64,000 bases of DNA. Origin: a bacterium (GTDB taxonomy: Bacteria; Zhuqueibacterota; Zhuqueibacteria; Residuimicrobiales; Krinioviventaceae). The stretch's first letter is position 1. Each line of letters opens with the position of its first letter. The stretch spans positions 1 to 64,000 of the forward strand of contig CAXXFV010000004.1 of the NCBI GenBank assembly GCA_963674595.2, given 5' to 3'. The position numbers and the translations under genes are program-made. Positions 1,127-63,942 of this stretch are shown here, piece after piece. The notes beneath the pieces were generated by a model, which had not been told where the DNA came from, did not search any database, and was given only the letters and a program-made list of their open reading frames with translations.

Positions 1127-3070
1127 TTACAGTTCACCAGATTGTTTTATCCACACAACCATCTCACCTTTATTACGATGCGCCCACGCGTAATAGGGAA
1201 CCATCGTCAGGTCCTGATGATCATTAATTTTTGCTTTAACCTGGACTATCCCATTGAGCATATCAGGCATATATTCAGTTGAAAATTTTGTTTCCGCAGG
1301 TAATTGTGAGTTGATTACATTACCATTATTATCCACCCCTTCCGCACAATACATCACAGGTCCGCGTTGTATCGCGACTTTTCCCGCATTCTCAGCAACA
1401 TTGTCATGAGCAATTACACGACGTACCGGCATCGGTAACTCCAGGTCTATATAATCTCCGGTCTTCCATGTTCGATTTATAACGATAAAACCGGATTCGG
1501 TCTTGATATCAACATGTTTATTATTAATCCATAACCTGATTTCGTCTTTAAAAGTATCAGCAAATTTATATAAATCGCCTGGAACAGGTTGATTTTGGGA
1601 CCATCCCGGCATACGAATGTAGACAGCAAATCGGGCCGTGTGCTGCGGTTTAATATTAATCTTTATTTTACCGTCCCATGGATATTTCGTTTTTTGGATA
1701 ATATGAACCATTTGGTTCTTAATTTGAATGTCGGCTTTACTACCGATGAACAGATTAATATAAATAATCTGCTGTTGTTTCGCATAAATATAGCCGGCTA
1801 TTGATGGCATAAAGCGGCACACATTACTGGGACAGCACGCTGTTCCAAACCAGGGCTGTCTCTCGCTTTCAGCAACATCTTGCAGCGGATTTACATAAAA
1901 AAAGCGGTCCCCGGATATTGACACACCGGATAAAAATCCATTATATAAAATACGTTCGAGTATGTCAAGATACTTTGATTCCCCATGTAAAAGGAACATA
2001 CGATGATTCCATAATGCATGACCAACGGCGGCACAGGTTTCACAATAAGCGCTTCTATTGGGAAGGTTATAGGCCTGCCCAAAAGCCTCTCCATCTTTAG
2101 TCGAACCGATTCCGCCTGTGACATACATTTTCGTTTTCACCAAATTGTCCCAAATTCGATCCAATGTTTTGACATAGCTTTTGTTCTTTTTAATCGCTGC
2201 CACATCAGTCATCCCGGCATAAAGATACATTGCACGCACCGCATGTCCGACAGGTTCTGTTTGATTTATTACACGAATATGGTCTTGAGCATAGGTACCG
2301 TATAATGTCTCGCGGGAAGTCGAATCCCCGCGCTGGTTGATAAAAAACTCAGCCAAGTCCAGATAGCGGGGATTTCGTGTAACACGATAAAGTTTGACCA
2401 AACCGATTTCAATTTCCTCATGGCCCGGCACATCTGATCGTTTACCCGGACCAAATTCGCTGACAATTAAATCTGCATTTTTTATGGCCACATCAAGCAA
2501 AGAGAGCCTACCGGTTGCCTGAAAATGGGCAACAGCCGCTTCATACAGATGACCAACATTATAAAGCTCATGGCTGTGTTCCAGATTTTCCCAGCGTGTT
2601 CGACCAATGGCATTTATCTCCCGATCTGTTTTCGTTTTTAGTTCCAGATCAATGCTGCGAACCGTATACAGATAACCATCTGTTTCCTGTGCGGCGGTAA
2701 TTTTACCTATCAAACCATCAAGATAAGCATCCAACTCCTGATTGGGATCAAGATGTAATGAATAGGACGCACCTTCAATTACCTTGAATACATCCGAGTC
2801 ATTATAACGTCGCCCGATGTGTTCTCCTTGCAGAATTCCACCGGCTTTTGCAAAATTATCTATTCTGCCTGTGGTTTCACAGTGTTTTAAGGCAATTGGA
2901 ATTGTCACCGTACGGTTTATATCCATACGTGGTGTCCAAAAATCATCATCCATTTCAACATCTGTAAACAGTACAGGCTGAATTGGATAATCTTGATTTA
3001 AACTTTTATCTGAGCACGCTACAAAAACGATAAATATTAATAAAATGTGAATGTAAGCAATACATTTCAT
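1127..3070 (-). CDS. GH127 beta-L-arabinofuranosidase-like glycoside hydrolase, lipoprotein
   Basis: HELYNVGHLYEAA, GHEEIE, GHAVRAMY, YCETCAA and TACCPSN (Zn-binding and nucleophile Cys) motifs; lipobox VFVAC. Confidence 0.92.
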   Translation of the reverse strand: MKCIAYIHILLIFIVFVACSDKSLNQDYPIQPVLFTDVEMDDDFWTPRMDINRTVTIPIALKHCETTGRIDNFAKAGGILQGEHIGRRYNDSDVFKVIEGASYSLHLDPNQELDAYLDGLIGKITAAQETDGYLYTVRSIDLELKTKTDREINAIGRTRWENLEHSHELYNVGHLYEAAVAHFQATGRLSLLDVAIKNADLIVSEFGPGKRSDVPGHEEIEIGLVKLYRVTRNPRYLDLAEFFINQRGDSTSRETLYGTYAQDHIRVINQTEPVGHAVRAMYLYAGMTDVAAIKKNKSYVKTLDRIWDNLVKTKMYVTGGIGSTKDGEAFGQAYNLPNRSAYCETCAAVGHALWNHRMFLLHGESKYLDILERILYNGFLSGVSISGDRFFYVNPLQDVAESERQPWFGTACCPSNVCRFMPSIAGYIYAKQQQIIYINLFIGSKADIQIKNQMVHIIQKTKYPWDGKIKINIKPQHTARFAVYIRMPGWSQNQPVPGDLYKFADTFKDEIRLWINNKHVDIKTESGFIVINRTWKTGDYIDLELPMPVRRVIAHDNVAENAGKVAIQRGPVMYCAEGVDNNGNVINSQLPAETKFSTEYMPDMLNGIVQVKAKINDHQDLTMVPYYAWAHRNKGEMVVWIKQSGEL

Positions 3071-17672: not shown

Positions 17673-19302
17673 TTACTTGCTGGTAATCAGCGAAGCGTCA
17701 TAATCTTTGATTTTTTCAAAACCAAGCAAATTCAAAATTGTTGAAGCCACGTTACTGAGTCCGGGATTTTCAACCTTTGCCATTTCATATTCACCGTTAT
17801 ATTGCGGATCATAAATGATAAAGGGAACCGGATTCAGTGTGTGCGCTGTTTTTGGTGACCGTTTTCCGTTCTTTTCGGAAAACATTTCATCAGAGTTTCC
17901 GTGATCAGCAGTAATAATGGCAATACCGCCCATCTCTTCAACAACCGGTAAAATTCTGCCGATACATTGGTCAACAGTTTCAACGGCTGTGATAGCAGCT
18001 TCCATATTACCGGTATGCCCGACCATATCACCATTGGCAAAATTCAACCGGCCGAATCTGTATTCACCTGTTTCAAGCAGCTCAATTGTTTTGTCTGCAA
18101 TTTCAACGGCTTTCATTTTCGGCGCCTTATCAAATTCGATTCTGTCGGATGGAATTTCAATATATGTTTCCAGGTCTTCATTGATGTATCCGGACCGGTT
18201 TCCGTTCCAAAAATAGGTGACGTGACCAAATTTTTGTGTTTCTGAAATAGCAAACATTTTTACGCCTTCTGCACACAAATATTCCGAAACAGTGCGGTCT
18301 ATTTCCGGTGGTGCTACAAGGAAATTATTCGGGATATGCAAATCACCGTCATATTCCATCATACCGGCATAGGTTACGTCCGGATATGCGGCTCTGTCAA
18401 ATTCGTTAAAATCTTTTTCATCAAAAGCGCGGGAAATTTCAATGGCCCGGTCGCCACGGAAATTAAAATTTAACACACAATCGCCATCTAAAATTCGGCC
18501 GACCGGTTCATCATTTTCATCCACAACAACAAACTGACCCAGATATTGGTCCGTCATTTTCGGGTCCTGGTCGTATAATGATTGAACAGCCTCTTCAGCA
18601 GATTTGAATTTAGGGGCATTTCCGCAGACGTGTGTATTCCATCCGCGTTTAACAACGTCCCAATCTGCTCCGTAACGGTCCATGGTGGTCACCATTCTTT
18701 CCGCCGCCTGAGGCAATATTGTAATCAAAACCTTTTTCTTTGGAAATTTTGTCCAGCAATTCCTGTGTCGGACGGATGTATTCCAAAGCAGATTTTTCAC
18801 CAACATCCCGGCCATCCAACAGTGCATGGATTCTTAATTTTTTCACACCATTTTCAGCACAATTATTAATTAATGCAAACAGATGATTAATATGGGAATG
18901 TACATTGCCATCGGAAAGCAATCCCATAAAGTGAACAGTTTTTCCCTCCTGACCCTTTTTCAAAAAAGTCTTCCACAGATCAGATTCGAAAATTTGTCCG
19001 GTCTTGATGGAATTGTCCACCAGTTTGGCTCCCTGGGCAAAAACACGACCGGCGCCAAGAGCATTATGTCCGACTTCACTATTTCCCATATCGCCGTCAC
19101 TCGGCAACCCAACAGCCGGGCCATGGGCATTTAATTGTGTATATAACTTGCTGTTGAACAATTTATCCAAATTCGGCGTATTGGCTTTATAAACCGCATT
19201 TGCTTCATTCTGTTTACCAATACCAACGCCATCCATAATTACAAGTAAAACCGGACCTTTCCGTCCCTGAAATCCTTTACTTTTTGTCAACTCTAACTTC
19301 AT
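17673..19302 (-). pseudogene. gpmI: 2,3-bisphosphoglycerate-independent phosphoglycerate mutase split by a 1-nt insertion (or sequencing error)
   Basis: N-terminal part (MDGVG, MGNSEVGH, SDGNVHS, LDGRD, IASGGG) and C-terminal part (RMVTTMDRY, NFRGDR, SETQKFGHVTYF, NGDMVGHTG, TADHGN, HT) join if one A is removed from GGAAAGAATG at 18698-18700, giving 542 aa. Confidence 0.9.
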
Positions 19303-30663: not shown

Positions 30664-32466
30664 CTAATCTCCCAAAACAGCTATTGCGGCTGAGCCAATA
30701 CCCGTATGAAGTCCCAACGCAGGAGACGCATCCATTATAAACACATCATTTTTATTAAACAATTTTAATATTTCATCTTTATACCATCCAGCAACTTTTG
30801 GCGATAAAACGTGAACAATACTAAAACGGGGGTTTTCAACTGTTTTTGCATATTCAACAGCGAGCTCTAACGTCTTTTTAACAACCTGACGGCGGCCGAC
30901 AACTTTTTTCGCTTCCACGGCCCGACCTTCGGAATCCAGGGTGAGGACAGGTTTCAGGTTCAATAAAGTACCGATAAGACCTTTAACAGGATTTATTCGG
31001 CCGCTTTTAATAATATATTTCAATGTTGGAATACTAATATAAATTCTTGTCTTTTCAATATATTTTTTCAATTTATCGACAATTTCCTGAATGGGCCGCT
31101 CAAGTTCGATAAGCCGCGCTGCCTCACAAACCAGTAATCCCAATGCTGCTGATGTGGTTTTTGAGTTAAGGATTTGCAAATTAATCTTGTCCTTAAACTC
31201 ACGGGCAGCCACCTGAGCGCCATTAAAGGTGCCGCTCAAACTTTCAGAAATATGTAATGAAATAGCAGAACGATATTGGTTGGAAATTTTATTATACATA
31301 TCACGATATTGTGAAAGAGAAGGTTGAGATGTTGATAAAGCATTGTCCGTTGTTTTCAAAATCTCGTAAAATTCGCTGGAGGTTATTTCGACACGATCCA
31401 GATAGTTTTTTTCACCTACCCGAACAACAACCGGAACGATATTTATATTATATTTTTTAAAAAACTCGTCAGGCAAATCACATGTTGAATCTGTTACCAA
31501 TGCAATTTGTTCTTTTTTAATGGTATTTTCATTAGAATCAACCTGGATCTGCATATCCTCAATTTTCTTTTGAACAACTTTACCACAATCAGAAGCTATG
31601 GCCAAAACAGAATCCGGTGTATTGGTATGAATATGAATCCTGACTTTTTGATGGCTGCCGATCACAATTAAAGAATCACCCAAATCGTTCAGTTTTTCTT
31701 TTAATAAAGACCGTGCTATATTCTTTCCCTCGATTAAACATTCGGTACAATATTTAAAACGAACATTTTGGTGACTATGCAGAATATGATGATGACGAAT
31801 TTTATCAACAACGTGTGTTCCGGCTGTCAAGGCAACCAGTTTCCCGGAATCAATAAAATCGATCATGCCTTCAATAATGTGCACAAAACCTTCAGCACCG
31901 GCATCCACAACACCGGAATCACCCAATATTTTCAATTTTTTCGGTGTATCGGCCAGAGATTTTTTTGCGCGGACAAGAGAGCTTTTTAACAATTCCACAA
32001 AATCACTTTTAGAATTTGCATGATCTGTTAAATGGACCGCCCAGTCCTTCATAACGGTGATTATAGTTCCTTCCCTGGGATTGGAAATAGCTGTTCGGGC
32101 GCGTTCAGCCGCATTTTTTACCGCAATGGCAAATGTTTCTGTGCTTACCCTGACCTTGCCTCTTGTTTCTTCTGCAAGGCCCTGAAAAAACTGGGCTAAA
32201 ATTACTCCGGAATTTCCTCTGGCGCCGCTCAGGGCCGAGTCTGCAATGGCATTGCTGACACCTTCAAAACTGGTATCATGACATCTTTCCGCTCCTTCTG
32301 CAATGACCTGCATTGTCTGGGCCATATTCGTACCTGTATCACCATCGGGCACTGGAAAAACATTTATATCATTTAAATGGTCCTGCATTTGCATGACACG
32401 ACGGGCAGAGGCAATAATGGACCTCTTTAACCGAGGACCATCAATATATTTTATTTTCACACGCAT
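30664..32466 (-). CDS. DAK2 (FakA-like) and DegV (FakB-like) fusion, probable fatty acid kinase
   Basis: INVFPVPDGDTGTNM, GARGNSGVILAQ, EGTIITV, VVDAG, YCTE, HIHT, then DegV motifs VTDSTCD, STSQPS, ISESLSGT, SGRI, KPVL, HTG. Confidence 0.92.
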   Translation of the reverse strand: MRVKIKYIDGPRLKRSIIASARRVMQMQDHLNDINVFPVPDGDTGTNMAQTMQVIAEGAERCHDTSFEGVSNAIADSALSGARGNSGVILAQFFQGLAEETRGKVRVSTETFAIAVKNAAERARTAISNPREGTIITVMKDWAVHLTDHANSKSDFVELLKSSLVRAKKSLADTPKKLKILGDSGVVDAGAEGFVHIIEGMIDFIDSGKLVALTAGTHVVDKIRHHHILHSHQNVRFKYCTECLIEGKNIARSLLKEKLNDLGDSLIVIGSHQKVRIHIHTNTPDSVLAIASDCGKVVQKKIEDMQIQVDSNENTIKKEQIALVTDSTCDLPDEFFKKYNINIVPVVVRVGEKNYLDRVEITSSEFYEILKTTDNALSTSQPSLSQYRDMYNKISNQYRSAISLHISESLSGTFNGAQVAAREFKDKINLQILNSKTTSAALGLLVCEAARLIELERPIQEIVDKLKKYIEKTRIYISIPTLKYIIKSGRINPVKGLIGTLLNLKPVLTLDSEGRAVEAKKVVGRRQVVKKTLELAVEYAKTVENPRFSIVHVLSPKVAGWYKDEILKLFNKNDVFIMDASPALGLHTGIGSAAIAVLGD

Positions 32467-32561: not shown

Positions 32562-33497
32562 CTAATTTTTAGACTGTAACCGATTAAAGGCCAGCTTTAT
32601 ATCGTGCTCAAAAACACCATTTAATGCCAATGCAAGTTGAGTTTCCAAAAGGCCCAGAGGCGTTCCCATGTCCAGGCGCTCACCTTGAATTTCCAATCCG
32701 ACAGCTCCCTCTGCTGCACACAGTTCAGCCTGGGCGGTCGTCAGTTGAATTTCCCCATTCTGACGGACATTATTTTTAATATGATTTTGTAATATTTCAA
32801 ATATTTTAGTGGATAATACATGCATTCCAAAAAATGTTAAAAACATATCAGCAGGCAATCCCTCTATGGCCAAATTTTCACGTGCATAGGCAACCTGGGG
32901 TTTTTCAACTATTTTATTTAATTGATAAGCATTCGGGGATTCCGGTATCTGTTCACCTGCAACCGTTCCAAACAGATATAAAAGTTCGGCAGGCGTTTGC
33001 TTTACAGCATAAATTGATTTTTTAAAAAGCTTGTATCCTTCAATAACCTGTTGAACACAGGAAACATCTGTTTGGGAAACATATAGATGATCACCCAGTA
33101 ACAGTAAAAAAGGTTCATCACCCACCCAGTCAGCAGCACAATTGACGGCATGACCATAACCTTCCTGTTGCTCCTGGTATAAATAGGTTATACTATTTTC
33201 CAGATGGGCCAGCATTTCAGACTGACGTAATCCCCATTTTTTATTTGTAAAAGAACTTTTTTCATTTTCAGACAAACTTTTAAAGTGAGACTTGAACTGC
33301 CTTTCCTCTCCGGGATTTACAATAATTGCAATTTCATCAATTCCGGCCCGGACAACCTGTTCGGCAATAATTTGAATCACAGGTTTTGTTATGCCGTCAC
33401 GATCAACAAGAGGGAACAGCTCTTTTTGTATGGAATTGGTTGCCGGGTATTGACGCGTTCCTTTTCCCGCAGCAGTTATAACTGCTTTTTTAATCAT
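32562..33497 (-). CDS. Sugar-1-phosphate nucleotidyltransferase (GalU-like)
   Basis: KAVITAAGKGTR, KELFP, QEGYGHAV, LLGDH, IVEKP, GEIQLT, DMGTP. Confidence 0.88.
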   Translation of the reverse strand: MIKKAVITAAGKGTRQYPATNSIQKELFPLVDRDGITKPVIQIIAEQVVRAGIDEIAIIVNPGEERQFKSHFKSLSENEKSSFTNKKWGLRQSEMLAHLENSITYLYQEQQEGYGHAVNCAADWVGDEPFLLLLGDHLYVSQTDVSCVQQVIEGYKLFKKSIYAVKQTPAELLYLFGTVAGEQIPESPNAYQLNKIVEKPQVAYARENLAIEGLPADMFLTFFGMHVLSTKIFEILQNHIKNNVRQNGEIQLTTAQAELCAAEGAVGLEIQGERLDMGTPLGLLETQLALALNGVFEHDIKLAFNRLQSKN

Positions 33498-33507
33498 GTT
33501 TTCACCA

Positions 33508-34527
33508 TTATTTGAGTATATTATATTTTTTTAATATTTTTTGTAACACAGGCTCTATCTGCCGATATAAGGTTTCATTAGCATAGGCCACCCAGGAAAC
33601 ATTGCTCATTACATTCAGACATGGATTTAAAAAATTTCCTTCAAGATCGGTAATAATAACCCCGGCCTCTCTGGCGACAAGTTCGGTACAAACATCATAA
33701 GGGTGGGCCGCCATCCCGGGCGGGATGCCGTTCAGGCCCGTTGCTTTCATCAGGTCGGCGCGAAAATCTCCGCTAAACCGGTCATGACCGACAGCCAACT
33801 CGTAAAATTGTCCGCCGGTGCTGATATATTGATCATCAAACACAAACGTTGTTTCAAGGTCATCTAAAAGGCCAAGCTCCGATAACAATTCTTCTTCAAT
33901 AGCGGCCGTAATCTGCTTTCTTCCGGGGAAAAATTTTGTCAACATGGCAAAACCATGTTTAAGGGTTTTGGCTGAGCTTGGTTTGGGGTAAAACGTTTCG
34001 TTCTCACCGGTGATTAAATTCATCCTCTCCCCTTTTGTTCCTCTGCCGCGAACAGCATAAAGCATATCGGCCAGGTATTGTTTACGCAAAGGAACTTCAG
34101 TCTGAATAGCAAGCTCAATATCCATTAAAGAGGTTTCCGGCCCAAGATTAGGGGCAAGAGCGGATAAAATCCAGGCGCTTCGTTTCTCATACATGATGCC
34201 ACGGGTTCCGTCAATCGGGTCGACAATCAGTCGAAACACAGCATCTTCAGGGTCCGCATCTTCGGGAAATATCATCGGGTCTCTTTCATCAAAACCCTCG
34301 GCAACAAGAATAAACGGTTCTTCTTCTCCCCAGATTTTACACTCTTTAAGAAGAATATCCTCACAGCTCTGATCGATGTTGTAAATAAAATCCGATTCCG
34401 CTTTTCTGGCAACAGAAGCCATTTCAATGTAATCGTGTTTTTTAGTATGTAAAACGATGGCATCTCGCATGGCCAGATGAATATTTTTAAGCCTGCTCAA
34501 TGCCCGGGTTAAAAAATCGGTATCCAT
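33508..34527 (-). CDS. Inositol monophosphatase/FIG superfamily phosphatase
   Basis: IYNID..CE, VAEG, IVDPIDGT, HPYD, AREAG. Confidence 0.85.
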   Translation of the reverse strand: MDTDFLTRALSRLKNIHLAMRDAIVLHTKKHDYIEMASVARKAESDFIYNIDQSCEDILLKECKIWGEEEPFILVAEGFDERDPMIFPEDADPEDAVFRLIVDPIDGTRGIMYEKRSAWILSALAPNLGPETSLMDIELAIQTEVPLRKQYLADMLYAVRGRGTKGERMNLITGENETFYPKPSSAKTLKHGFAMLTKFFPGRKQITAAIEEELLSELGLLDDLETTFVFDDQYISTGGQFYELAVGHDRFSGDFRADLMKATGLNGIPPGMAAHPYDVCTELVAREAGVIITDLEGNFLNPCLNVMSNVSWVAYANETLYRQIEPVLQKILKKYNILK

Positions 34528-34536
34528 TAAAACTCC

Positions 34537-35961
34537 CTAAAATTTAACAATACTAGTTCCAATCGCTATGGCGCCGGGAGAAGATCCCCAAAAAACATAG
34601 GGTGTCAATCCTGTTGCATCCTTGTAAAGGGCCGCAATATTTTCTATAACATTCCGGGTGCCGGCGCGGGCCAAAACAGCAACAGTTCCTCCACTGCCGC
34701 CGCCGGTAATCTTGGCGCCATACAATCCGGATTCAACACCAGCCTCTTTAACCAAATCAACAATTACGTCCGTTTCTTTTGCACCCAATCCACAATTCTT
34801 GCTGTAACTTTCATGCGACTCATACAAAAGCCTGCCTGCACCAATCAAAATATCTTCAGAGGGATCTTTGGCATAAAAGTCCAGCGCTTCGATGAATTGA
34901 TACACTCTTTCATTTTCCATAATAGCATGTTCAGCCCGTGAACGCGGACGATAATTTTTTTCAGGATCAATCACGGTTACCGGATCATCATGAGATTTTA
35001 ATTTTTCGAGAAACTCTTTTCCTGTAATTTTTACAGGCACACTTTTTTTATACTTTTCTTCCCAATCTTTTGATGACACATTACACAAATATCCGGCAAA
35101 GGGCTGTTCATTCCTATCTGTTTTAACTTTATGAAATATATATTTTCTTCCCATAAACGTTGCAATTCGCGTATCCGTATAGGGGTTACCGTTCACAGCA
35201 TGCCGTACATTTGAAAAAATCCCGATAAACTGAATTCCTTTTGGAATGGTCATCATTCGAACAATTTCATGCGGCTGGCATTTAAGAACAACAAATTTAT
35301 TCTCTTCACCAAAAGCGGTGGTTACCTGGTCCATAATACCACAGGCAGCGCCGACAACAGAATTTTCCAAAATCTGGCACAACCGTGCTAATTGAAAAGA
35401 GTCTATTTGTATATTAAATGCTTTTGTCAAGGCCTGAACAACAGCAACCTCTAAAGAAGCCGAAGAACTGACACCGGAACCAAAGGGGATTGTTCCAACA
35501 ATACCGATTGTTGCACCAAATTCAAAATTTGAGCAAATATTTTCCGTCAAAAGAACATGAAAGGCGCCCAACACATAAGCAGACCAGGCTATTTCCAGAG
35601 TTTTCAATAATTCGTCATGTATTGTTTGATAGGATTTTAATTTGTCCCCGGTGTAAAAATCATCCAAATTAAATTGAACAGTAGAAGTATATCCTTCTGA
35701 TTTTGCGGCAAGACTTTTTACTAAAATTCGGCGGTCCCGACGCTTTTGTACGCCGACAATGGTTGATTCGGCCAAAGGCAGTTCCAGCACCACAGAACCG
35801 GAATAATCGGCTATGCCTCCCAAAACATCCAGCCTTGCCGGAGCCCGAGCAATGACCACATCTCTATCCGGTAAGAACAAACCGCCAAAATTATACCTGA
35901 TTTTATTTGTAAAATCTATCAGATCATTCGGATAATTTTCTGGTGAAAGACGATGGCCCAT
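34537..35961 (-). CDS. GHMP sugar-1-kinase (galactokinase/L-arabinokinase-like)
   Basis: [46 protein letters not shown]. Confidence 0.9.
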   Translation of the reverse strand: [474 protein letters not shown]

Positions 35962-36110
35962 GACATTTCTTTCTTATATTCTAGTTTTTATATACTTGGC
36001 AATATACTAAAATTAAGAAAAAATACAAACACAACTCAAAAAAAATAAAAAAAATTTTCATATTACACGGTAACGGAAACGGTTAAGAAATAAAGACTTT
36101 GATAAAAAAC

Positions 36111-36139
36111 TTGACTAGGTGATTCAGAAATTATATATT
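36111..36139 (+). promoter_or_regulatory. sigma70-type promoter for the SDR/flavoprotein pair
   Basis: TTGACT-N17-TATATT. Confidence 0.65.
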
Positions 36140-36183
36140 GTTTTACATTAATTTATTAGTAACAAAAGATAACGTGAGGAAAT

Positions 36184-42748: not shown

Positions 42749-43987
42749 CTAGCTCTTTAAATTAACAACTTTTCCAACAAACAACATAGCGCCGGTTTCC
42801 TGTTCGTGGATAACAAACAAAAACGGCCGGTCAACGGTCATTACAAAATAGGGATCATGATTACCTATACCATACTCTTTCATAACAACAACAGTCACTG
42901 CCGCAGCTTCGGTACCCTTTTCATCAACAGAGACAACAGCTTTATGGTCGACTTTATCGATATATAATTCGCCATTTTTATTAATACCGCGAAAATCAGC
43001 ACCGCCGCTAAAAGCGATGCCCATGCCCATTTTTGACAAAACGTCTTTCAGGTCTTTTCTATATTCCACATCAAACTTTGGAAAAGAGAAAGAACCTTTC
43101 ATAGTTTGAAAACTTGTCATCCATTGGGTCCATTTATCAGAATCCATCACCATAATCAGAGAATCCAAATCACAAGATGTCTGCGGCAGGATAACAGCCA
43201 TCCGGCAGGCGCCGCCTCCATAGGGTAAATCAATGGCCTGGATTTTATCGTTTCCAAAATAGGAAAAATTGTTTTCCTGATGCATCATTTTACAGGAGAC
43301 CTCTGCGGTTTTTCCATAAAAAGTGCCGTTATGGGTGTTGGATTCGTCAAATTCACTGGTCCAGGTGCCGTTAAAATAGATGGCATTTATTAGAAACATA
43401 ATGGTTGACGGATCTATAAAATCAATCATTTCGGGTATTTTATCGGCTGTATTTTCACTAATCCAGTTATTAATCTCATCCGGGGCCGTCGGTAACGAAA
43501 AATCCAACGGGAACACACCCGCATCAAAATTGGATTGATTTAACTCTAAAAATTCATCTTCAACAGTGAACCCTAAACGATACCAAATAGAATTGGCAAT
43601 ATCAAATTGAATTTTGGCATCCAGACTTGCAAAATAATCCATTAAATTTTTGTAGGACTGGTTGATCTCTGCCTTTGTAAGCTCACCAAATCCCAGAGTA
43701 TTTCGCATGGCTGATTCGGTCGTTGTTTGTGCTCCGTTATAGGTCATACCCAGGGCCATGGAAACGGAAAAAGGTGAAAAGAAAACATCCGTATCTTTAT
43801 CATCCTGACTGAGTTGTTTTAACAAATTAATACCAAACTCATTACTGACCCTGGCAACATCAACATCAACCTTTGACAAATTGTGTTTTTTGATAATTTC
43901 CGTATCACTCATTAAACTGCTTTCACAATTTACAAGCAAGATAGAAACACAAACAGCTAAAATTGTTAAAAATTTAACTTTAATCAT
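42749..43987 (-). CDS. Serpin (serine protease inhibitor), probable lipoprotein
   Basis: FFSPFSVSMALGM, ANSIW, INNWI, LINAIYFNGTW, VDEKGTEAAAVT hinge, DRPFLF; lipobox-like LLVNC. Confidence 0.95.
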   Translation of the reverse strand: MIKVKFLTILAVCVSILLVNCESSLMSDTEIIKKHNLSKVDVDVARVSNEFGINLLKQLSQDDKDTDVFFSPFSVSMALGMTYNGAQTTTESAMRNTLGFGELTKAEINQSYKNLMDYFASLDAKIQFDIANSIWYRLGFTVEDEFLELNQSNFDAGVFPLDFSLPTAPDEINNWISENTADKIPEMIDFIDPSTIMFLINAIYFNGTWTSEFDESNTHNGTFYGKTAEVSCKMMHQENNFSYFGNDKIQAIDLPYGGGACRMAVILPQTSCDLDSLIMVMDSDKWTQWMTSFQTMKGSFSFPKFDVEYRKDLKDVLSKMGMGIAFSGGADFRGINKNGELYIDKVDHKAVVSVDEKGTEAAAVTVVVMKEYGIGNHDPYFVMTVDRPFLFVIHEQETGAMLFVGKVVNLKS

Positions 43988-47151: not shown

Positions 47152-48273
47152 TTATTGGTTTAATATTTTTTCATAATATGCTTCATATTGAGGGATAATA
47201 ATGTGCGATTCAAAAACAGAAACAGCTTTTTTTCTGGCTTCATCTTTAAACTCTTGCAAAACGGATTCGTTCGACAACAATTCAATAACGCTTGCGGCCA
47301 TTGCATCCGTATCGCCGACAGGATGTAAAAATCCATTTATCTGGTGGTCCACAACTTCAGGGAGACCACCGATATTTGAACCGACAACCGGTGTTTTACT
47401 GCTTAACGCTTCCAAAGCCGCCAGACCAAAACTTTCCTCGCTACTGGGAAGAAGGAACACATCAGCACACCCTAAAAGCGTTTCTACATAGTCCTGTGTT
47501 CCCAAATAAATTACATCCTGCAACACGCCCAATTGAGCAGCCAGGTCATGTGATTCCTTACGGTCCGGGCCTTCTCCAATAAGCAACAATTTTGCAGGTA
47601 TATGTTCCCTGACTTTGGCCAGAATTTGAATGGTATCTGTCAATCGCTTAACCGGACGAAAATTAGAAGCGTGTACTAAAATTTTTTCTCTGTTCGGTGC
47701 ATATTGTTTAATATTACAATTCGTAACAACTCCGTTAAAACGGTCCGTATCCACAAAATTGTAAAGGACCTTAATATCTTTTTCAATCTTAAACTCTTTT
47801 TTTGTACGATCACCAAGATATTTGGAAACAGCCGTCACGCCGTCGGAAATATCAATACTGAATTTGACGGCTTCAAAAAAAGATTCATCTTTACCGACCA
47901 GTGTTATATCCGTACCATGTAAAGTCGTAACGATTTTTGGACTGTTTTCTCCAATCATCTGCTTGGCAAGATATGCACTAATAGCGTGCGGAATGGCATA
48001 ATGGGCATGGATAATATCCAACTGATGTTCCCGTGATACTTCCATAATTTTTGTTGCCAAACTCAAATCATAGGGCGGATATTTAAAAAGCGGATAAGCT
48101 GATACATCCACTTCGTGATAATATACATTCTGCTGAAAACCTCTTAAACGAAACGGAGAACTGTAAGAGATAAAATGGACCTCATGTCCTCGCCGCGCCA
48201 GTTCAACACCAAGTTCCGTAGCAACGACACCACTCCCTCCATGTGTTGGATAACATACCATAGCTATCTTCAT
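47152..48273 (-). CDS. bshA: N-acetyl-alpha-D-glucosaminyl L-malate synthase (bacillithiol biosynthesis, GT4)
   Basis: [67 protein letters not shown]. Confidence 0.95.
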
Positions 48274-60795: not shown

Positions 60796-63700
60796 TTATA
60801 TTACCTGCAATTTTAGTGTTTTTATTTCATAGGGATTAATCTGAAACCAAAAACTCTGGTCATTAAATTCTACAGGACCTGTTTCCTCCTCCATCAAATT
60901 ACATTCAATAACCCTGATGATATTTTTAAAACAGTTGATCTTTACCTTTCCCCGTTTGTTATATGTTTCATAAACTCGTATAATAATATTATTATCATCT
61001 TCTGCTTTTTTTATAGTATCAATTATCACATGATCTGTATCAATTTGAAAAAACGAAAAATCTGTAATAGACGGTGTAGCAACGAACTTGACACATTTAA
61101 TTTCATCATTAAATTCATAGGCCATTTTGACAATATGGCCGTCTTTCCAGGAGCCGGTATGAGGCACAAGTGAATAATTAAAATAATGAATACCTATATC
61201 CGCATTGGGGTCGGGAGCGATGCCGGACTTGATCAACGTCAGCCGAATAGTATTTTCATGAATGTCATAACCGTATTTGCAGTCATTTAACAGACTGACG
61301 CCGTATCCTTCCTCTGAAAGGTCCGCCCATTTTTGTGCCGGTACTTCGAATCGGCCATAATCCCAGTTTGTGTTTTTATGGGTGGGACGTTCAATCGTAC
61401 CGAAGGGTATTTCATAAACCGCTTTATTCGAATGAATATCAACCGGAAAAGCAACCTTTAACAAAGTTTGGTGCTGGTTCCAGTTGACAATGGTTTCAAA
61501 ATCAATTCTGGGAATTTTATCATAAATATAAATTCGCTGCGTTATGGTTGAATTTAAAAACGTTCGTTTTACCAGAATTCCGGCACGTACGGGGCCTTCT
61601 TCAATCACTTTGATTTTTGTCAGGTTTAAAATTTCCTGATGTTTTTCATCGTAAAAAATATCAATGTCCCAGGCATTGTTTCGCGCCGGTCTGTCTTCAA
61701 AAAGCTGAAAAACATTGCCGGATTTGCCTGTCTGCAAAACCTGCCGATTTATTCTTTTATCAAAAATTGACGTTATGTTGCCGAAATTATCCAACTGAAT
61801 TTCAAAAAACCGGTTCTCCATTAAATGCTGGGAAATTTTTAAACTTGACAGAGTATCTTTTTTCGTTCCATTTTTTATATAAAATGATTGTATTCCCATA
61901 GCTGGCAGGGACGAAGTATAAAAATAGAAGGTATTTGCATATTTGTCAAATTGCACCGGCAATGAATTACCGGATGTGTCGGTAATATGAAAATCCTCAT
62001 CCTGATTTTCAAACATCGGACACCTAACGATGGCAGCACGGTCCCAGCATAATGAATTAAATGCTGTTAAAACTGTTTTATCAGAAACATGACCTGCTTT
62101 TAAACGCACAATATCCTGCTGCGCTTTTTGTAAAATTTCCTGGCCCTTTGAAAAAATTTGGTTATAGTCAGCATCACAATCTTTATAAACCTGAGGAATT
62201 GATGATCCGGGAAGAATATCATGGAACTGATTAAGCAGCACCAGTTCCCATAAATTATTGATCTCCTGAGGATATTCCACACCGTTTAACAAATTAATAG
62301 CACTGAAAAGCTCTATCTGCCTTAACAACAGTTCAGCTTTACGGTTGGCACGTTTAACAGCGGCCTGGGACGTATAACAGCCCCGGTGAAACTGTAAATA
62401 CAATTCCTCGTTCCATACCGGAAAATTCCCGGCGTTTTCTTCCAGAACATTAAAAAACTCTCTGACAGTCGTATTTTTTTGCTGCGGCAAACATTGAATG
62501 GCTTTTAAACGACGGCTGTTTTCCATCATTTCGGGTACCGGACCACCACCGCCGTCTCCCCACCCGTAGGACATGAGCACATTGTCATTTTGCTGTTTTT
62601 GCCGGTAATTTTCCCAGCAGTTATTCAAATTGTCGGCGCTCAAATCAACGCTGTAATCATTCCATCCACGCGGATCAGGTGTGGTGATAAAATGTGTTAA
62701 TATACGCGAACCATCCACGCCCTGCCACCAAAACGTGTCATAGGGAATTTTTATAAACTGACTCCAGCTCAACTTTGTCGTCATAAAATATTTTATGCCG
62801 GATTTCAGCATAATTTGTGGTAAGGAGTAACAAAAACCGAATGCATCCGGGATCCACATGATTTTGGAATCGATGCCAAACTCTTTTTTAAAATATCGTT
62901 TTCCGAATAAAAACTGGCGAACAAGAGACTCTCCGGACGGTAAATTACAGTCCGGTTCAACCCACATTCCCCCTTCTGCTTCCCACTGCCCGGTTGCTAC
63001 TTTTTTCCTGATTTGATCAAAAATATAGGGATACTGCTGCTGTACGTATTTATAAAGCTGGGGCTGACTCTGGATAAATCGATACTCCGGATAAAGCGAC
63101 ATCAAACGCAAGGCATTTGCAAAAGTACGGGCTGCTTTTTTCTTACTGTGTTTGATCTGCCACATCCAGGCGATATCAATATGGGCATGACCTGTACAAA
63201 AAACAGTCGGCCGATGCAACGTCTTGATGTTTGTTTCAAACACTTTATTTTCGACATATTGGATTGCCTGATCGACAGAGTCTATAAAGACACTATTGCC
63301 TTCGTTTAAAAAATCTACAATTTTCAATGTTTCACGTAATACATTCAACAAAAATGAGTGCTGCGGATTTTCCGGCCGGCAAATTAAAATGGAATCGTAA
63401 ATATTTTTACAATGATAATATAATTTTTCAACATTTTCCCGGACCGCAACCAAATCCACCTGTTCAAAAATATGCTGGTGTTGTTCCAGACCGCTAAAGG
63501 CTTCAACAGCCAGAACATTATGTTCCTCAAGATTATCAATGTCCCATAATGGAATAACATTTCTGCGAACATCAATACTTTGTAATGGCAGGCTGTTTAA
63601 ATAGACCAGCAATTCATATTCCCGTAGATCCCCGCCCTCACTGCTTTTGAAAAAGAAGCGTTTTCCCGGTTGAAGTATTACAGCCGGTTTTCCCGGCATT

Positions 63701-63942
63701 TTATCAGGAATATTGAAACGAATTCGAAACCAACAGGTTTTGTCCTCACCACCCCAGGATTTACCAACAGAAAACGTCTTCCACTGGCTGTCATCATAAT
63801 CAATAGCTTCAGCGCTGTATGTGTTCTCCGGTGAAATGCGAATGTCCGTTAAAGGAGTCTGAACAGTATATATATGCGCTTTTAAACTGTTGATTTTTTT
63901 AGCAATATAATCCAATTCAAGTTTTTTATAGGTATCATCCAT
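60796..63942 (-). CDS. GH38 alpha-mannosidase (cytoplasmic)
   Basis: GHAHIDIAWMW, GGMWVEPD, WIPDAFG, GWGDGGGGP, ELYLQFHRG, LNQFHDILPGS, RFEVPAQKW, LLNDCKYG. Confidence 0.95.
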   Translation of the reverse strand: MDDTYKKLELDYIAKKINSLKAHIYTVQTPLTDIRISPENTYSAEAIDYDDSQWKTFSVGKSWGGEDKTCWFRIRFNIPDKMPGKPAVILQPGKRFFFKSSEGGDLREYELLVYLNSLPLQSIDVRRNVIPLWDIDNLEEHNVLAVEAFSGLEQHQHIFEQVDLVAVRENVEKLYYHCKNIYDSILICRPENPQHSFLLNVLRETLKIVDFLNEGNSVFIDSVDQAIQYVENKVFETNIKTLHRPTVFCTGHAHIDIAWMWQIKHSKKKAARTFANALRLMSLYPEYRFIQSQPQLYKYVQQQYPYIFDQIRKKVATGQWEAEGGMWVEPDCNLPSGESLVRQFLFGKRYFKKEFGIDSKIMWIPDAFGFCYSLPQIMLKSGIKYFMTTKLSWSQFIKIPYDTFWWQGVDGSRILTHFITTPDPRGWNDYSVDLSADNLNNCWENYRQKQQNDNVLMSYGWGDGGGGPVPEMMENSRRLKAIQCLPQQKNTTVREFFNVLEENAGNFPVWNEELYLQFHRGCYTSQAAVKRANRKAELLLRQIELFSAINLLNGVEYPQEINNLWELVLLNQFHDILPGSSIPQVYKDCDADYNQIFSKGQEILQKAQQDIVRLKAGHVSDKTVLTAFNSLCWDRAAIVRCPMFENQDEDFHITDTSGNSLPVQFDKYANTFYFYTSSLPAMGIQSFYIKNGTKKDTLSSLKISQHLMENRFFEIQLDNFGNITSIFDKRINRQVLQTGKSGNVFQLFEDRPARNNAWDIDIFYDEKHQEILNLTKIKVIEEGPVRAGILVKRTFLNSTITQRIYIYDKIPRIDFETIVNWNQHQTLLKVAFPVDIHSNKAVYEIPFGTIERPTHKNTNWDYGRFEVPAQKWADLSEEGYGVSLLNDCKYGYDIHENTIRLTLIKSGIAPDPNADIGIHYFNYSLVPHTGSWKDGHIVKMAYEFNDEIKCVKFVATPSITDFSFFQIDTDHVIIDTIKKAEDDNNIIIRVYETYNKRGKVKINCFKNIIRVIECNLMEEETGPVEFNDQSFWFQINPYEIKTLKLQVI

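Follow-up and report, generated by a model that had tools for sequence, protein, structure and literature searches.

In a 64,000-nucleotide stretch of DNA from a bacterium of the phylum Zhuqueibacterota (Residuimicrobiales, Krinioviventaceae; GCA_963674595.2, contig CAXXFV010000004.1, positions 1–64,000 of the forward strand), hereafter the window, three consecutive genes encode a sugar kinase of the plant L-arabinokinase (ARA1) type, a protein of the inositol monophosphatase/fructose bisphosphatase (IMPase/FBPase) fold and a divergent GalU-like nucleotidyltransferase (Table 1). We tentatively propose, at a probability of roughly 0.4, that these genes constitute an operon for a pentose counterpart of the Leloir/Isselbacher route, in which L-arabinose would be converted to D-xylose by way of uridine diphosphate (UDP) sugars.

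The tight packing of the three genes noted in a preliminary description of this DNA is borne out by the open reading frames (ORFs) and by both junctions, which read TAG-GGAGTTTTA-ATG (9 nt, including GGAG) from the kinase to the IMPase-like gene and TAA-TGGTGAAAAC-ATG (10 nt) from the latter to the nucleotidyltransferase. Upstream of the kinase, and transcribed divergently from it, lie a short-chain dehydrogenase/reductase (SDR) gene and a gene for a 666-aa flavoprotein, while a 95-nt gap on the 3' side of the nucleotidyltransferase is followed by a FakA-DegV fusion gene and then by plsY. The promoter role of the intergenic region upstream of the kinase is presumed from its position, a consensus scan having returned no minus-strand sigma-70-like site within it, and the promoter/terminator scan yielded no usable signal marking the ends of the operon. 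The absence of galT and galE from the 64-kb window, likewise stated in the preliminary description, holds in the Pfam scan.

Table 1. Coordinates of the three-gene cluster and its junctions in the window
Feature	Position	Strand	Basis
ARA1-type GHMP sugar-1-kinase, 474 aa, predicted L-arabinokinase lacking the plant N-terminal domain	34537..35961	minus	ORF, Pfam, homology
IMPase/FBPase-fold protein, 339 aa, predicted sugar-1-phosphate phosphatase	33508..34527	minus	ORF, Pfam, predicted structure
Divergent GalU-like UTP:sugar-1-phosphate uridylyltransferase, 311 aa	32562..33497	minus	ORF, Pfam
Kinase-phosphatase junction, 9 nt, GGAG ribosome-binding motif	34528..34536	minus	read from sequence
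Phosphatase-nucleotidyltransferase junction, 10 nt	33498..33507	minus	read from sequence
Divergent intergenic region between kinase and SDR gene, presumed operon promoter region	35962..36183		ORF map

The kinase carries both GHMP domains above cut-off (GHMP_kinases_N, PF00288, 64.6 bits; GHMP_kinases_C, PF08544, 29.9 bits). It scores below every NCBIfam GalK cut-off tested (TIGR00131, NF003472, NF003006, NF003705 and NF001816), with 160.1 versus 226.65 for TIGR00131 and 171.9 versus 499 for another of these models, and gives no match at E≤0.001 to PF10509, the galactose-binding signature of GalK. Two canonical GalKs above cut-off are encoded elsewhere in the same genome (contig C6, 372 bits; contig C23, 303 bits); the window kinase shares about 25% identity with them and, in the columns of the GalK signature (GEHTDY-type motif), has D45, G49, A51 and S54 where they have N, E, T and N. 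Plant L-arabinokinases, found among the longer proteins searched, align to it at 37–41% identity over 92–98% of the query (E ∼1e-87 to 1e-92), the overall figure for plant ARA1 being about 40% over 93–95% of the window kinase, and the 22-letter motif that the preliminary description had quoted as unlike GalK and like plant ARA1 is indeed present in the translation. Moreover, 75 of the 79 columns conserved to at least 95% among 86 ARA1-like rows are kept in the window kinase, including positions at which the ARA1 family departs from GalK, and the four differences are conservative.

Phylogenetic analysis gave the same placement. Both a FastTree reconstruction of 89 rows and a quick IQ-TREE reconstruction of 52 rows united all ARA1-like sequences, the window kinase among them, in a single clade (support 100) separate from the GalKs of its own genome. 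The plant ARA1 kinase domains nest in a 99-supported bacterial clade of Acidobacteriota, Chloroflexota and Planctomycetota sequences, and the window kinase groups outside that clade with the kinases of two other loci, L001 and L002 (support 97). These comparisons assign the window kinase to the ARA1 type rather than to GalK, while the more specific name L-arabinokinase is a homology inference, somewhat weakened because the protein branches basally within the family. The nesting of the plant domains may further point to a bacterial origin of the plant ARA1 kinase domain. The best match in the Protein Data Bank (PDB) is 9ulx, ‘AbGHMP’ (498 aa; also 9uly), with an E-value of 1.3e-102, an alignment over residues 26–468 and a similar motif. 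This entry shows that work on a bacterial homologue exists; our literature search found neither a paper nor a substrate for 9ulx/9uly, so that the function of AbGHMP is not usable here. A search on the sugar-binding residues of galactokinases returned unrelated papers only, and we make no claim on the residues contacting C6.

Several kinase relatives have an unusual form or host. In Armatimonadota, fusions of about 640–650 aa (L005 1184–3115, P0066 and P0073) join an N-acetylmuramoyl-L-alanine amidase domain (PF01510) to an ARA1-like kinase. One ARA1-like kinase of 42% identity sits on a contig attributed to an Asgard archaeon (L013, a Promethearchaeota metagenome-assembled genome), with no partner gene within 7 kb, and another, in genome G080 (L160 7779–9340, contig C2), occurs in two pieces (residues 3–362, then a piece of 131 aa) before an intact nucleotidyltransferase and is probably a frameshifted or broken copy.

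The middle gene barely exceeds the Pfam cut-off for Inositol_P (PF00459, 27.5 bits against 27; 33.7 for its homologue at locus L074), stays far below the NCBIfam cut-offs for the named enzymes of the IMPase family (SuhB, HisN, FBPase/IMPase and NADP phosphatase; best 27.8 versus 264), and its L074 homologue has no NCBIfam match at 1e-10. Matches to PDB sequences are marginal, with the DPIDGT and WD-like motifs aligned to SuhB. The metal-binding Glu and the DPxDGT and WD-type Asp motifs of the IMPase/FBPase superfamily are all present; E77, D103, D106, G107 and D278 do not vary among 31 homologues from several phyla, which average 61% identity per column. An AlphaFold model built on the alignment of these 31 homologues reached a pLDDT of 89.3, and Foldseek returned 269 PDB matches for it at E≤0.001, with IMPase, FBPase and 3'-phosphoadenosine 5'-phosphate (PAP) nucleotidase entries among the best-ranked matches listed: the archaeal FBPase/IMPase AF2372, class I FBPases, SuhB and PAP nucleotidase were matched about equally (TM ∼0.6–0.67, 12–18% identity). 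According to this model, the middle gene product is a true member of the five-layer sugar-phosphatase fold that represents an uncharacterised, highly conserved subfamily, and we predict it to be a sugar-1-phosphate phosphatase. The family is large (6994 of the 8000 candidates scored match at E≤0.001), the 120 members listed bear generic names only, and the ESM Atlas offers only generic ‘inositol monophosphatase family’ clusters for it. Two ordinary IMPase-family genes are present elsewhere in the same genome.

The third gene product belongs to the NTP_transferase family (PF00483) and scores 174 against the cut-off of 326.8 for the GalU model TIGR01099, although it aligns to the model end to end over positions 1–261. 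Its best PDB match is Bacillus subtilis YngB (1.6e-35), with the GalU motifs aligned. No gene of the genome reaches the GalU cut-off, and the window nucleotidyltransferase is the best GalU-like gene there.

The proposal of a pentose pathway draws on the neighbourhoods of kinase relatives in other genomes. A pattern scan with one genome per species yielded 470 stretches with kinase relatives, the best 80 of which were kept, a sample that leans to close relatives; neighbours were scored by tblastn (E≤1e-20, at least 60% coverage) in flanks of up to 7 kb, shorter at some loci. The most frequent partners beside the kinase were a GalT-like gene (36/80 loci) and an IMPase-like gene (34/80), followed by a sugar-binding protein (19/80), a GalE-like gene (17/80), a GH51 α-L-arabinofuranosidase (14/80), a mutarotase (13/80), a GalU-like gene downstream of the kinase (9/80), XylB (9/80) and XylA (7/80); genes of a sugar ATP-binding cassette transporter are likewise common nearby. 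Representative neighbours exceeded their NCBIfam cut-offs (XylA 546 versus 447, XylB 568 versus 380, GalE 436 versus 262 and GalT 303 versus 102). Taken by combination, GalT and the IMPase-like gene occurred together at 28 of the 80 loci, GalT only at eight, the IMPase-like gene only at five, the GalU-like gene only at eight and the IMPase-like gene with the GalU-like gene at a single locus (L001), leaving 30 loci with none of the three. Among longer proteins, seven appeared as GalT-kinase fusions (P0121 and six others) and one as an IMPase-kinase fusion (P0126); pairwise alignment confirmed one fusion of each kind. Cultured bacteria among the carriers include Dictyobacter aurantiacus S27 (L027) and Paludisphaera soli JC670 (L044).

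The 32 genomes with a GalT-IMPase-kinase cluster all contain GalT, and 28 of them also encode a canonical GalK above cut-off. Eight show two separate sets, one of GalK and GalT and the other of a second GalT with the IMPase-like gene and the ARA1-like kinase. XylA is found in 29 of the 32, and 12 genomes have it no more than 10 kb from the kinase. At least nine acidobacterial genomes with this cluster additionally contain ORFs of 731–903 aa with a weak match to GalK models below cut-off.

In the pentose series, L-arabinose corresponds to D-galactose and D-xylose to D-glucose. By this correspondence, the route would begin with phosphorylation of free L-arabinose at C1 by the ARA1-type kinase to give β-L-arabinose-1-phosphate, from which the GalU-like enzyme would form UDP-L-arabinose with UTP. 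A GalE-type 4-epimerase encoded elsewhere would convert UDP-L-arabinose to UDP-D-xylose, and the same nucleotidyltransferase, running in reverse with pyrophosphate, would release α-D-xylose-1-phosphate; in Acidobacteriota, Chloroflexota and others, the GalT paralogue may instead swap uridine monophosphate between the two pentose-1-phosphates. Finally, the IMPase-fold enzyme would hydrolyse xylose-1-phosphate to D-xylose, which would enter XylA/XylB metabolism, with a supply of UDP-L-arabinose and UDP-xylose as a possible side output. A pentopyranose-1-phosphate lacks a free primary hydroxyl onto which the phosphate could be transferred, which is why a phosphatase would stand in place of phosphoglucomutase. 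We infer the substrates, the reactions, which way the flux runs and which enzyme acts as the epimerase; what we observe are the gene identities, their family placement and the patterns of linkage and fusion. The pentose route would account for the phosphatase, for the second GalT and GalE, for the XylA/XylB and GH51 neighbours and for the fusions. As a precedent, UDP-sugar pyrophosphorylases have been evaluated on both L-arabinose-1-phosphate and xylose-1-phosphate (PMC5974040).

These comparative data also bear on two functions suggested in the preliminary description. A kinase and nucleotidyltransferase that together make a nucleoside diphosphate sugar from a free sugar gain from the recurrence of the adjacent pair, with the same GalU-like subfamily, in Armatimonadota, Gemmatimonadota and unclassified lineages (9/80 loci); on the other side stands the behaviour of the nucleotidyltransferase as a backbone gene, described below. 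For the IMPase-like enzyme, either removal of excess sugar-1-phosphate or release of a converted sugar had been envisaged. The second option fits the comparative data best, since XylA, XylB, GalE and GH51 are common neighbours, and the first survives as part of a rival explanation.

In a wider form, the proposal would describe a widespread and so far undescribed bacterial catabolism of L-arabinose by C4-epimerisation at the UDP level to D-xylose, with a new IMPase-fold xylose-1-phosphate phosphatase as its committed last step, with uridylyl transfer by a GalT paralogue in Acidobacteriota, Chloroflexota and Planctomycetota or by the GalU-like enzyme in the window, and with a plant ARA1 kinase domain derived from the bacterial family. 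We regard this wider form as possible rather than probable.

The gene content of the window's own phylum sets several observations against the pentose route. In a sample of 151 genomes (including the unpublished G088 and G144), the kinase was found in 52 at E≤1e-50 and the IMPase-like gene in 40 at E≤1e-20; both occur in 19 genomes and are adjacent in ten. At E≤1e-40 the nucleotidyltransferase was found in 58 genomes, of which about 31 carry it at the level of orthologues. Within the window's order, we compared what lies between the SDR/FAD genes and plsY, a slot of mosaic content. The arrangement of kinase, IMPase-like gene and nucleotidyltransferase (with fakA) is shared by the window, G091, G106 and G082, the last on the contig that is also L001, and G136 has an SDR gene in addition between the IMPase-like gene and the nucleotidyltransferase. 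In five genomes (G094, G131, G085, G080 and G051) the slot holds the kinase and the nucleotidyltransferase, in three (G019, G086 and G052) the kinase alone and in six (G004, G079, G044, G072, G101 and G111) the nucleotidyltransferase alone. The extra SDR gene of G136 (L129 9514–10299, contig C324) is of a generic type. The full triad was thus seen in the window's own order only, and the expectation that the three genes form a linked set elsewhere did not hold beyond this handful of relatives; what the neighbourhood survey does reveal across phyla is the recurring pair of kinase and GalU-like gene. GalT-IMPase-kinase arrangements occur in other families of the phylum, with GalT and IMPase-like genes about 63–76% identical to the acidobacterial ones.

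The nucleotidyltransferase is accordingly a syntenic backbone gene, with the kinase, with or without the phosphatase gene, as an insertion/deletion module directly before it. Seventeen of the about 31 genomes with an orthologue of the nucleotidyltransferase have no kinase, and since kinase-less relatives have the gene in the same position ahead of fakA/plsY, with the SDR/FAD genes beside it, it is not a dedicated pathway gene. Likewise, 16 of the 28 phylum genomes with an IMPase-like homologue of at least 40% identity lack the kinase; inspection of 12 such loci showed the gene on its own, in surroundings that are not conserved and in one case include a GalT remnant next to it. This remnant (L116 9212–9376, genome G008, contig C5) is a fragment of 55 residues, 80% identical to the cluster-type GalT, that adjoins the stand-alone IMPase-like gene, and the locus looks like a decayed cluster. 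Conversely, 31 of the 45 kinase genomes without an IMPase-like gene in the locus (a tally that includes the unpublished G220) have none anywhere at E≤1e-40.

Further points of the same tendency come from the epimerase, the energetics and the arabinose genes. Neither the window cluster nor the triads of relatives include a 4-epimerase by Pfam and locus inspection, and the GalE-like genes elsewhere in the genome share only 24–31% identity with the cluster-type epimerase (tblastn). Each pentose taken through the route costs two ATP equivalents, and a pyrophosphorylase running in reverse needs pyrophosphate. A fusion of kinase and phosphatase does not exclude action on the same position, for which the bifunctional PFK-2/FBPase-2, a kinase-phosphatase fusion, is a precedent. 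The genome also holds a canonical AraD-AraA pair, so that the statement of the preliminary description that bacteria normally use AraABD applies to this genome too, and growth on arabinose does not require the UDP-sugar route here. In the window's order, strong AraA matches were obtained for four of 23 kinase-bearing genomes versus nine of 14 kinase-less ones. This contrast speaks for the route but is suggestive only, and no statistical test, because the genomes are kin; across the whole phylum sample (9/52 with the kinase versus 21/99 without) it vanishes. AraA is found in none of the 32 genomes with a GalT-IMPase-kinase cluster, which is uninformative because just eight of 201 genomes in the Acidobacteriota sample have it.

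On the side of the pentose route, genes suited to substrate supply and to the downstream steps are present in the genome, namely XylA, a near-XylB, a GH51 and a GH127 β-L-arabinofuranosidase. XylA is also present in four of the five relatives with the triad that were searched, and AraA gave no match in G091, G082, G136 and G106 and only a weak one in G092. A search of the whole genome with a cluster-type GalT query gave no tblastn hit at E≤1e-8; the Pfam GalT model was not run on the genome. The genome furthermore has a second sugar-activation system, a fusion of 875 aa on contig C3 (G000:C3:339979–343560; L085 349–2976; L162) with an N-terminal NTP_transferase domain and a C-terminal GalK-like GHMP kinase, encoded directly downstream of a GalE-like epimerase gene.

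The strongest alternative to the pentose route is plant-like salvage only, in which L-arabinose or a close analogue would be converted to a UDP-sugar for glycan synthesis and the IMPase-fold enzyme would act as a safety valve or proofreader on excess or wrong sugar-1-phosphate. The kinase-nucleotidyltransferase pair is commoner without the phosphatase than with it (eight of the 80 loci, in unrelated contexts, and the five genomes of the window's phylum with this pair in the slot), and most genomes with the pair have no IMPase-like gene at all. In addition, no conserved third partner or shared family follows the GalU-like gene in the Armatimonadota and Gemmatimonadota pairs, a result that also counts against a tight three-gene pathway. 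Catabolism of arabinose would already be covered by AraD-AraA. Plants use the same two steps for recycling, and arabinose flux into nucleotide sugars is toxic there (PMC12281597). Yet salvage leaves the clustering of the phosphatase family with XylA, XylB, GalE, GH51 and transporters unexplained, and a kinase translationally coupled or fused to a phosphatase of its own product would amount to a futile cycle unless regulated. Nor does any glycosyltransferase gene adjoin the cluster, the nearest being a GT4 gene at 47152–48273. We consider salvage only to be rather unlikely, though the most probable of the rivals.

Alternatively, there may be no three-gene pathway at all. The nucleotidyltransferase would then be the housekeeping UDP-glucose pyrophosphorylase of a conserved unit with fakA and plsY, upstream of which a mobile module of the kinase, with or without the phosphatase, happened to land, and the functional unit would consist of kinase and phosphatase, possibly without any nucleotidyl-transfer partner. 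The variable occupancy of the slot in relatives agrees with this explanation, as does the fact that no other GalU at cut-off exists in the genome. It is at odds with the independent recurrence in Armatimonadota, Gemmatimonadota and unclassified lineages of a kinase gene that precedes a member of this divergent GalU-like subfamily, with the gaps of 9 and 10 nt, which imply co-translation, and with the G027 contig, on which the IMPase-like gene directly adjoins the nucleotidyltransferase. We judge a chance landing of this kind to be improbable.

That the kinase is an additional galactokinase, or a galacturonate- or L-fucose-type galacto-sugar kinase, in a variant hexose Leloir/Isselbacher set appears very unlikely. 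Its best NCBIfam hits are GalK models, some homologues bear the label ‘galactokinase’ at the Joint Genome Institute (JGI), and GalT, GalE and GalM are usual neighbours elsewhere; but canonical GalKs are already present in this genome and in most of the cluster genomes, identity to GalK is low and the GalK-signature positions differ as they do in plant ARA1, and a hexose route has no need of a phosphatase or of XylA/XylB. Least credible of all is a route from myo-inositol to UDP-glucuronate (IMPase to inositol, myo-inositol oxygenase [MIOX] to glucuronate, the kinase to glucuronate-1-phosphate and the nucleotidyltransferase to UDP-glucuronate): its gene types match the plant pathway and an inositol-1-phosphate synthase (MIPS) is present in the genome, but MIOX has no match there (weak evidence, as control genomes were equally silent), the kinase groups with ARA1, two ordinary IMPases are already available and the neighbours elsewhere are arabinose and xylose genes.

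L-arabinose is among the most abundant plant-derived pentoses, and the bacterial routes for it known to us are the AraA/B/D isomerase pathway and oxidative pathways. In our literature search, which lacked most subscription journals and supplements, neither a bacterial ARA1-type kinase nor a route from L-arabinose to D-xylose through UDP-sugars turned up. If the pentose route holds, a UDP-sugar pathway with free xylose as its end product would add to the known ways of using arabinose, and would be a candidate route for lineages in which AraA is rare, such as the Acidobacteriota sampled here. It would also assign a function to two large unannotated families, the IMPase-like proteins and the bacterial ARA1-like kinases, provide enzymes for making UDP-L-arabinose and UDP-xylose, and bear on the origin of the plant arabinokinase. 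If it does not hold, the cluster would still represent, in a bacterium, the equivalent of the pair of enzymes by which plants salvage arabinose.

Other features of the window were noted in passing. The FakA-DegV gene (30664–32466, minus strand), which together with the following plsY is kept in relatives, encodes a 600-aa protein in which FakA-type Dak2 and middle domains are joined to a full DegV/FakB-type domain (253.8 bits); it resembles a fatty-acid kinase whose catalytic and binding subunits have been joined in one chain. A cofactor-independent phosphoglycerate mutase (17673–19302, minus strand) is split into overlapping ORFs of 217 and 384 aa, each with half of the iPGM_N and Metalloenzyme domains, and may reflect a frameshift or an assembly error. 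The GH127 β-L-arabinofuranosidase gene (1127–3070, minus strand) and a GH38 α-mannosidase gene (60796–63942, minus strand), both about 30 kb from the cluster, fit a glycan-degrading lifestyle. A bacterial serpin of 412 aa (42749–43987, minus strand; PF00079, 367 bits) adjoins a sigma-54-type response regulator.

Among known systems, the IMPase-family sugar-1-phosphate phosphatases offer the closest parallel for the middle gene. Plant VTC4 is the L-galactose-1-phosphate phosphatase of the IMPase family, and the middle gene product has the same fold and metal-binding motifs; hydrolysis of a sugar-1-phosphate has a precedent in the family. Compared with solved members of that family, however, it is only 12–18% identical and about 70 residues longer, and it falls below the curated cut-offs. 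Bacteroides FKP resembles the cluster in coupling an anomeric GHMP kinase to a nucleotidyltransferase for sugar salvage, and the 875-aa fusion on contig C3 is of that kind; the window, by contrast, encodes separate proteins, with a nucleotidyltransferase of the GalU-like type and a phosphatase in addition.

In plant salvage, ARA1 converts L-arabinose to L-arabinose-1-phosphate, from which UDP-sugar pyrophosphorylase (USP) forms UDP-L-arabinose, and ARA1 is a two-domain protein with an extra N-terminal glycosyltransferase-like domain (PMC12281597). The window cluster shares with it a homologous kinase domain, the family-specific residues and the logic of passing from free sugar to sugar-1-phosphate to UDP-sugar. 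The plant proteins are about 990 aa long, some with PF13528, whereas the bacterial kinase has 474 aa and GHMP domains only; in addition, the bacterial nucleotidyltransferase is of the GalU type (PF00483) and not a eukaryotic USP, and a phosphatase gene is inserted between the two.

The Leloir pathway consists of GalK, GalT and GalE followed by phosphoglucomutase, and its Isselbacher variant uses pyrophosphorylases. The cluster has in common with them an anomeric kinase of the GalK superfamily and uridylyl transfer, predicted here to proceed by a pyrophosphorylase and in other phyla by GalT; many clusters of other genomes also include a mutarotase and an epimerase of the GalE type. It differs in its predicted pentose substrate, in the IMPase-fold phosphatase that would replace phosphoglucomutase and in its output, a free sugar destined for XylA/XylB; moreover, in at least eight genomes the ARA1-like set coexists with a canonical GalK-GalT pair.

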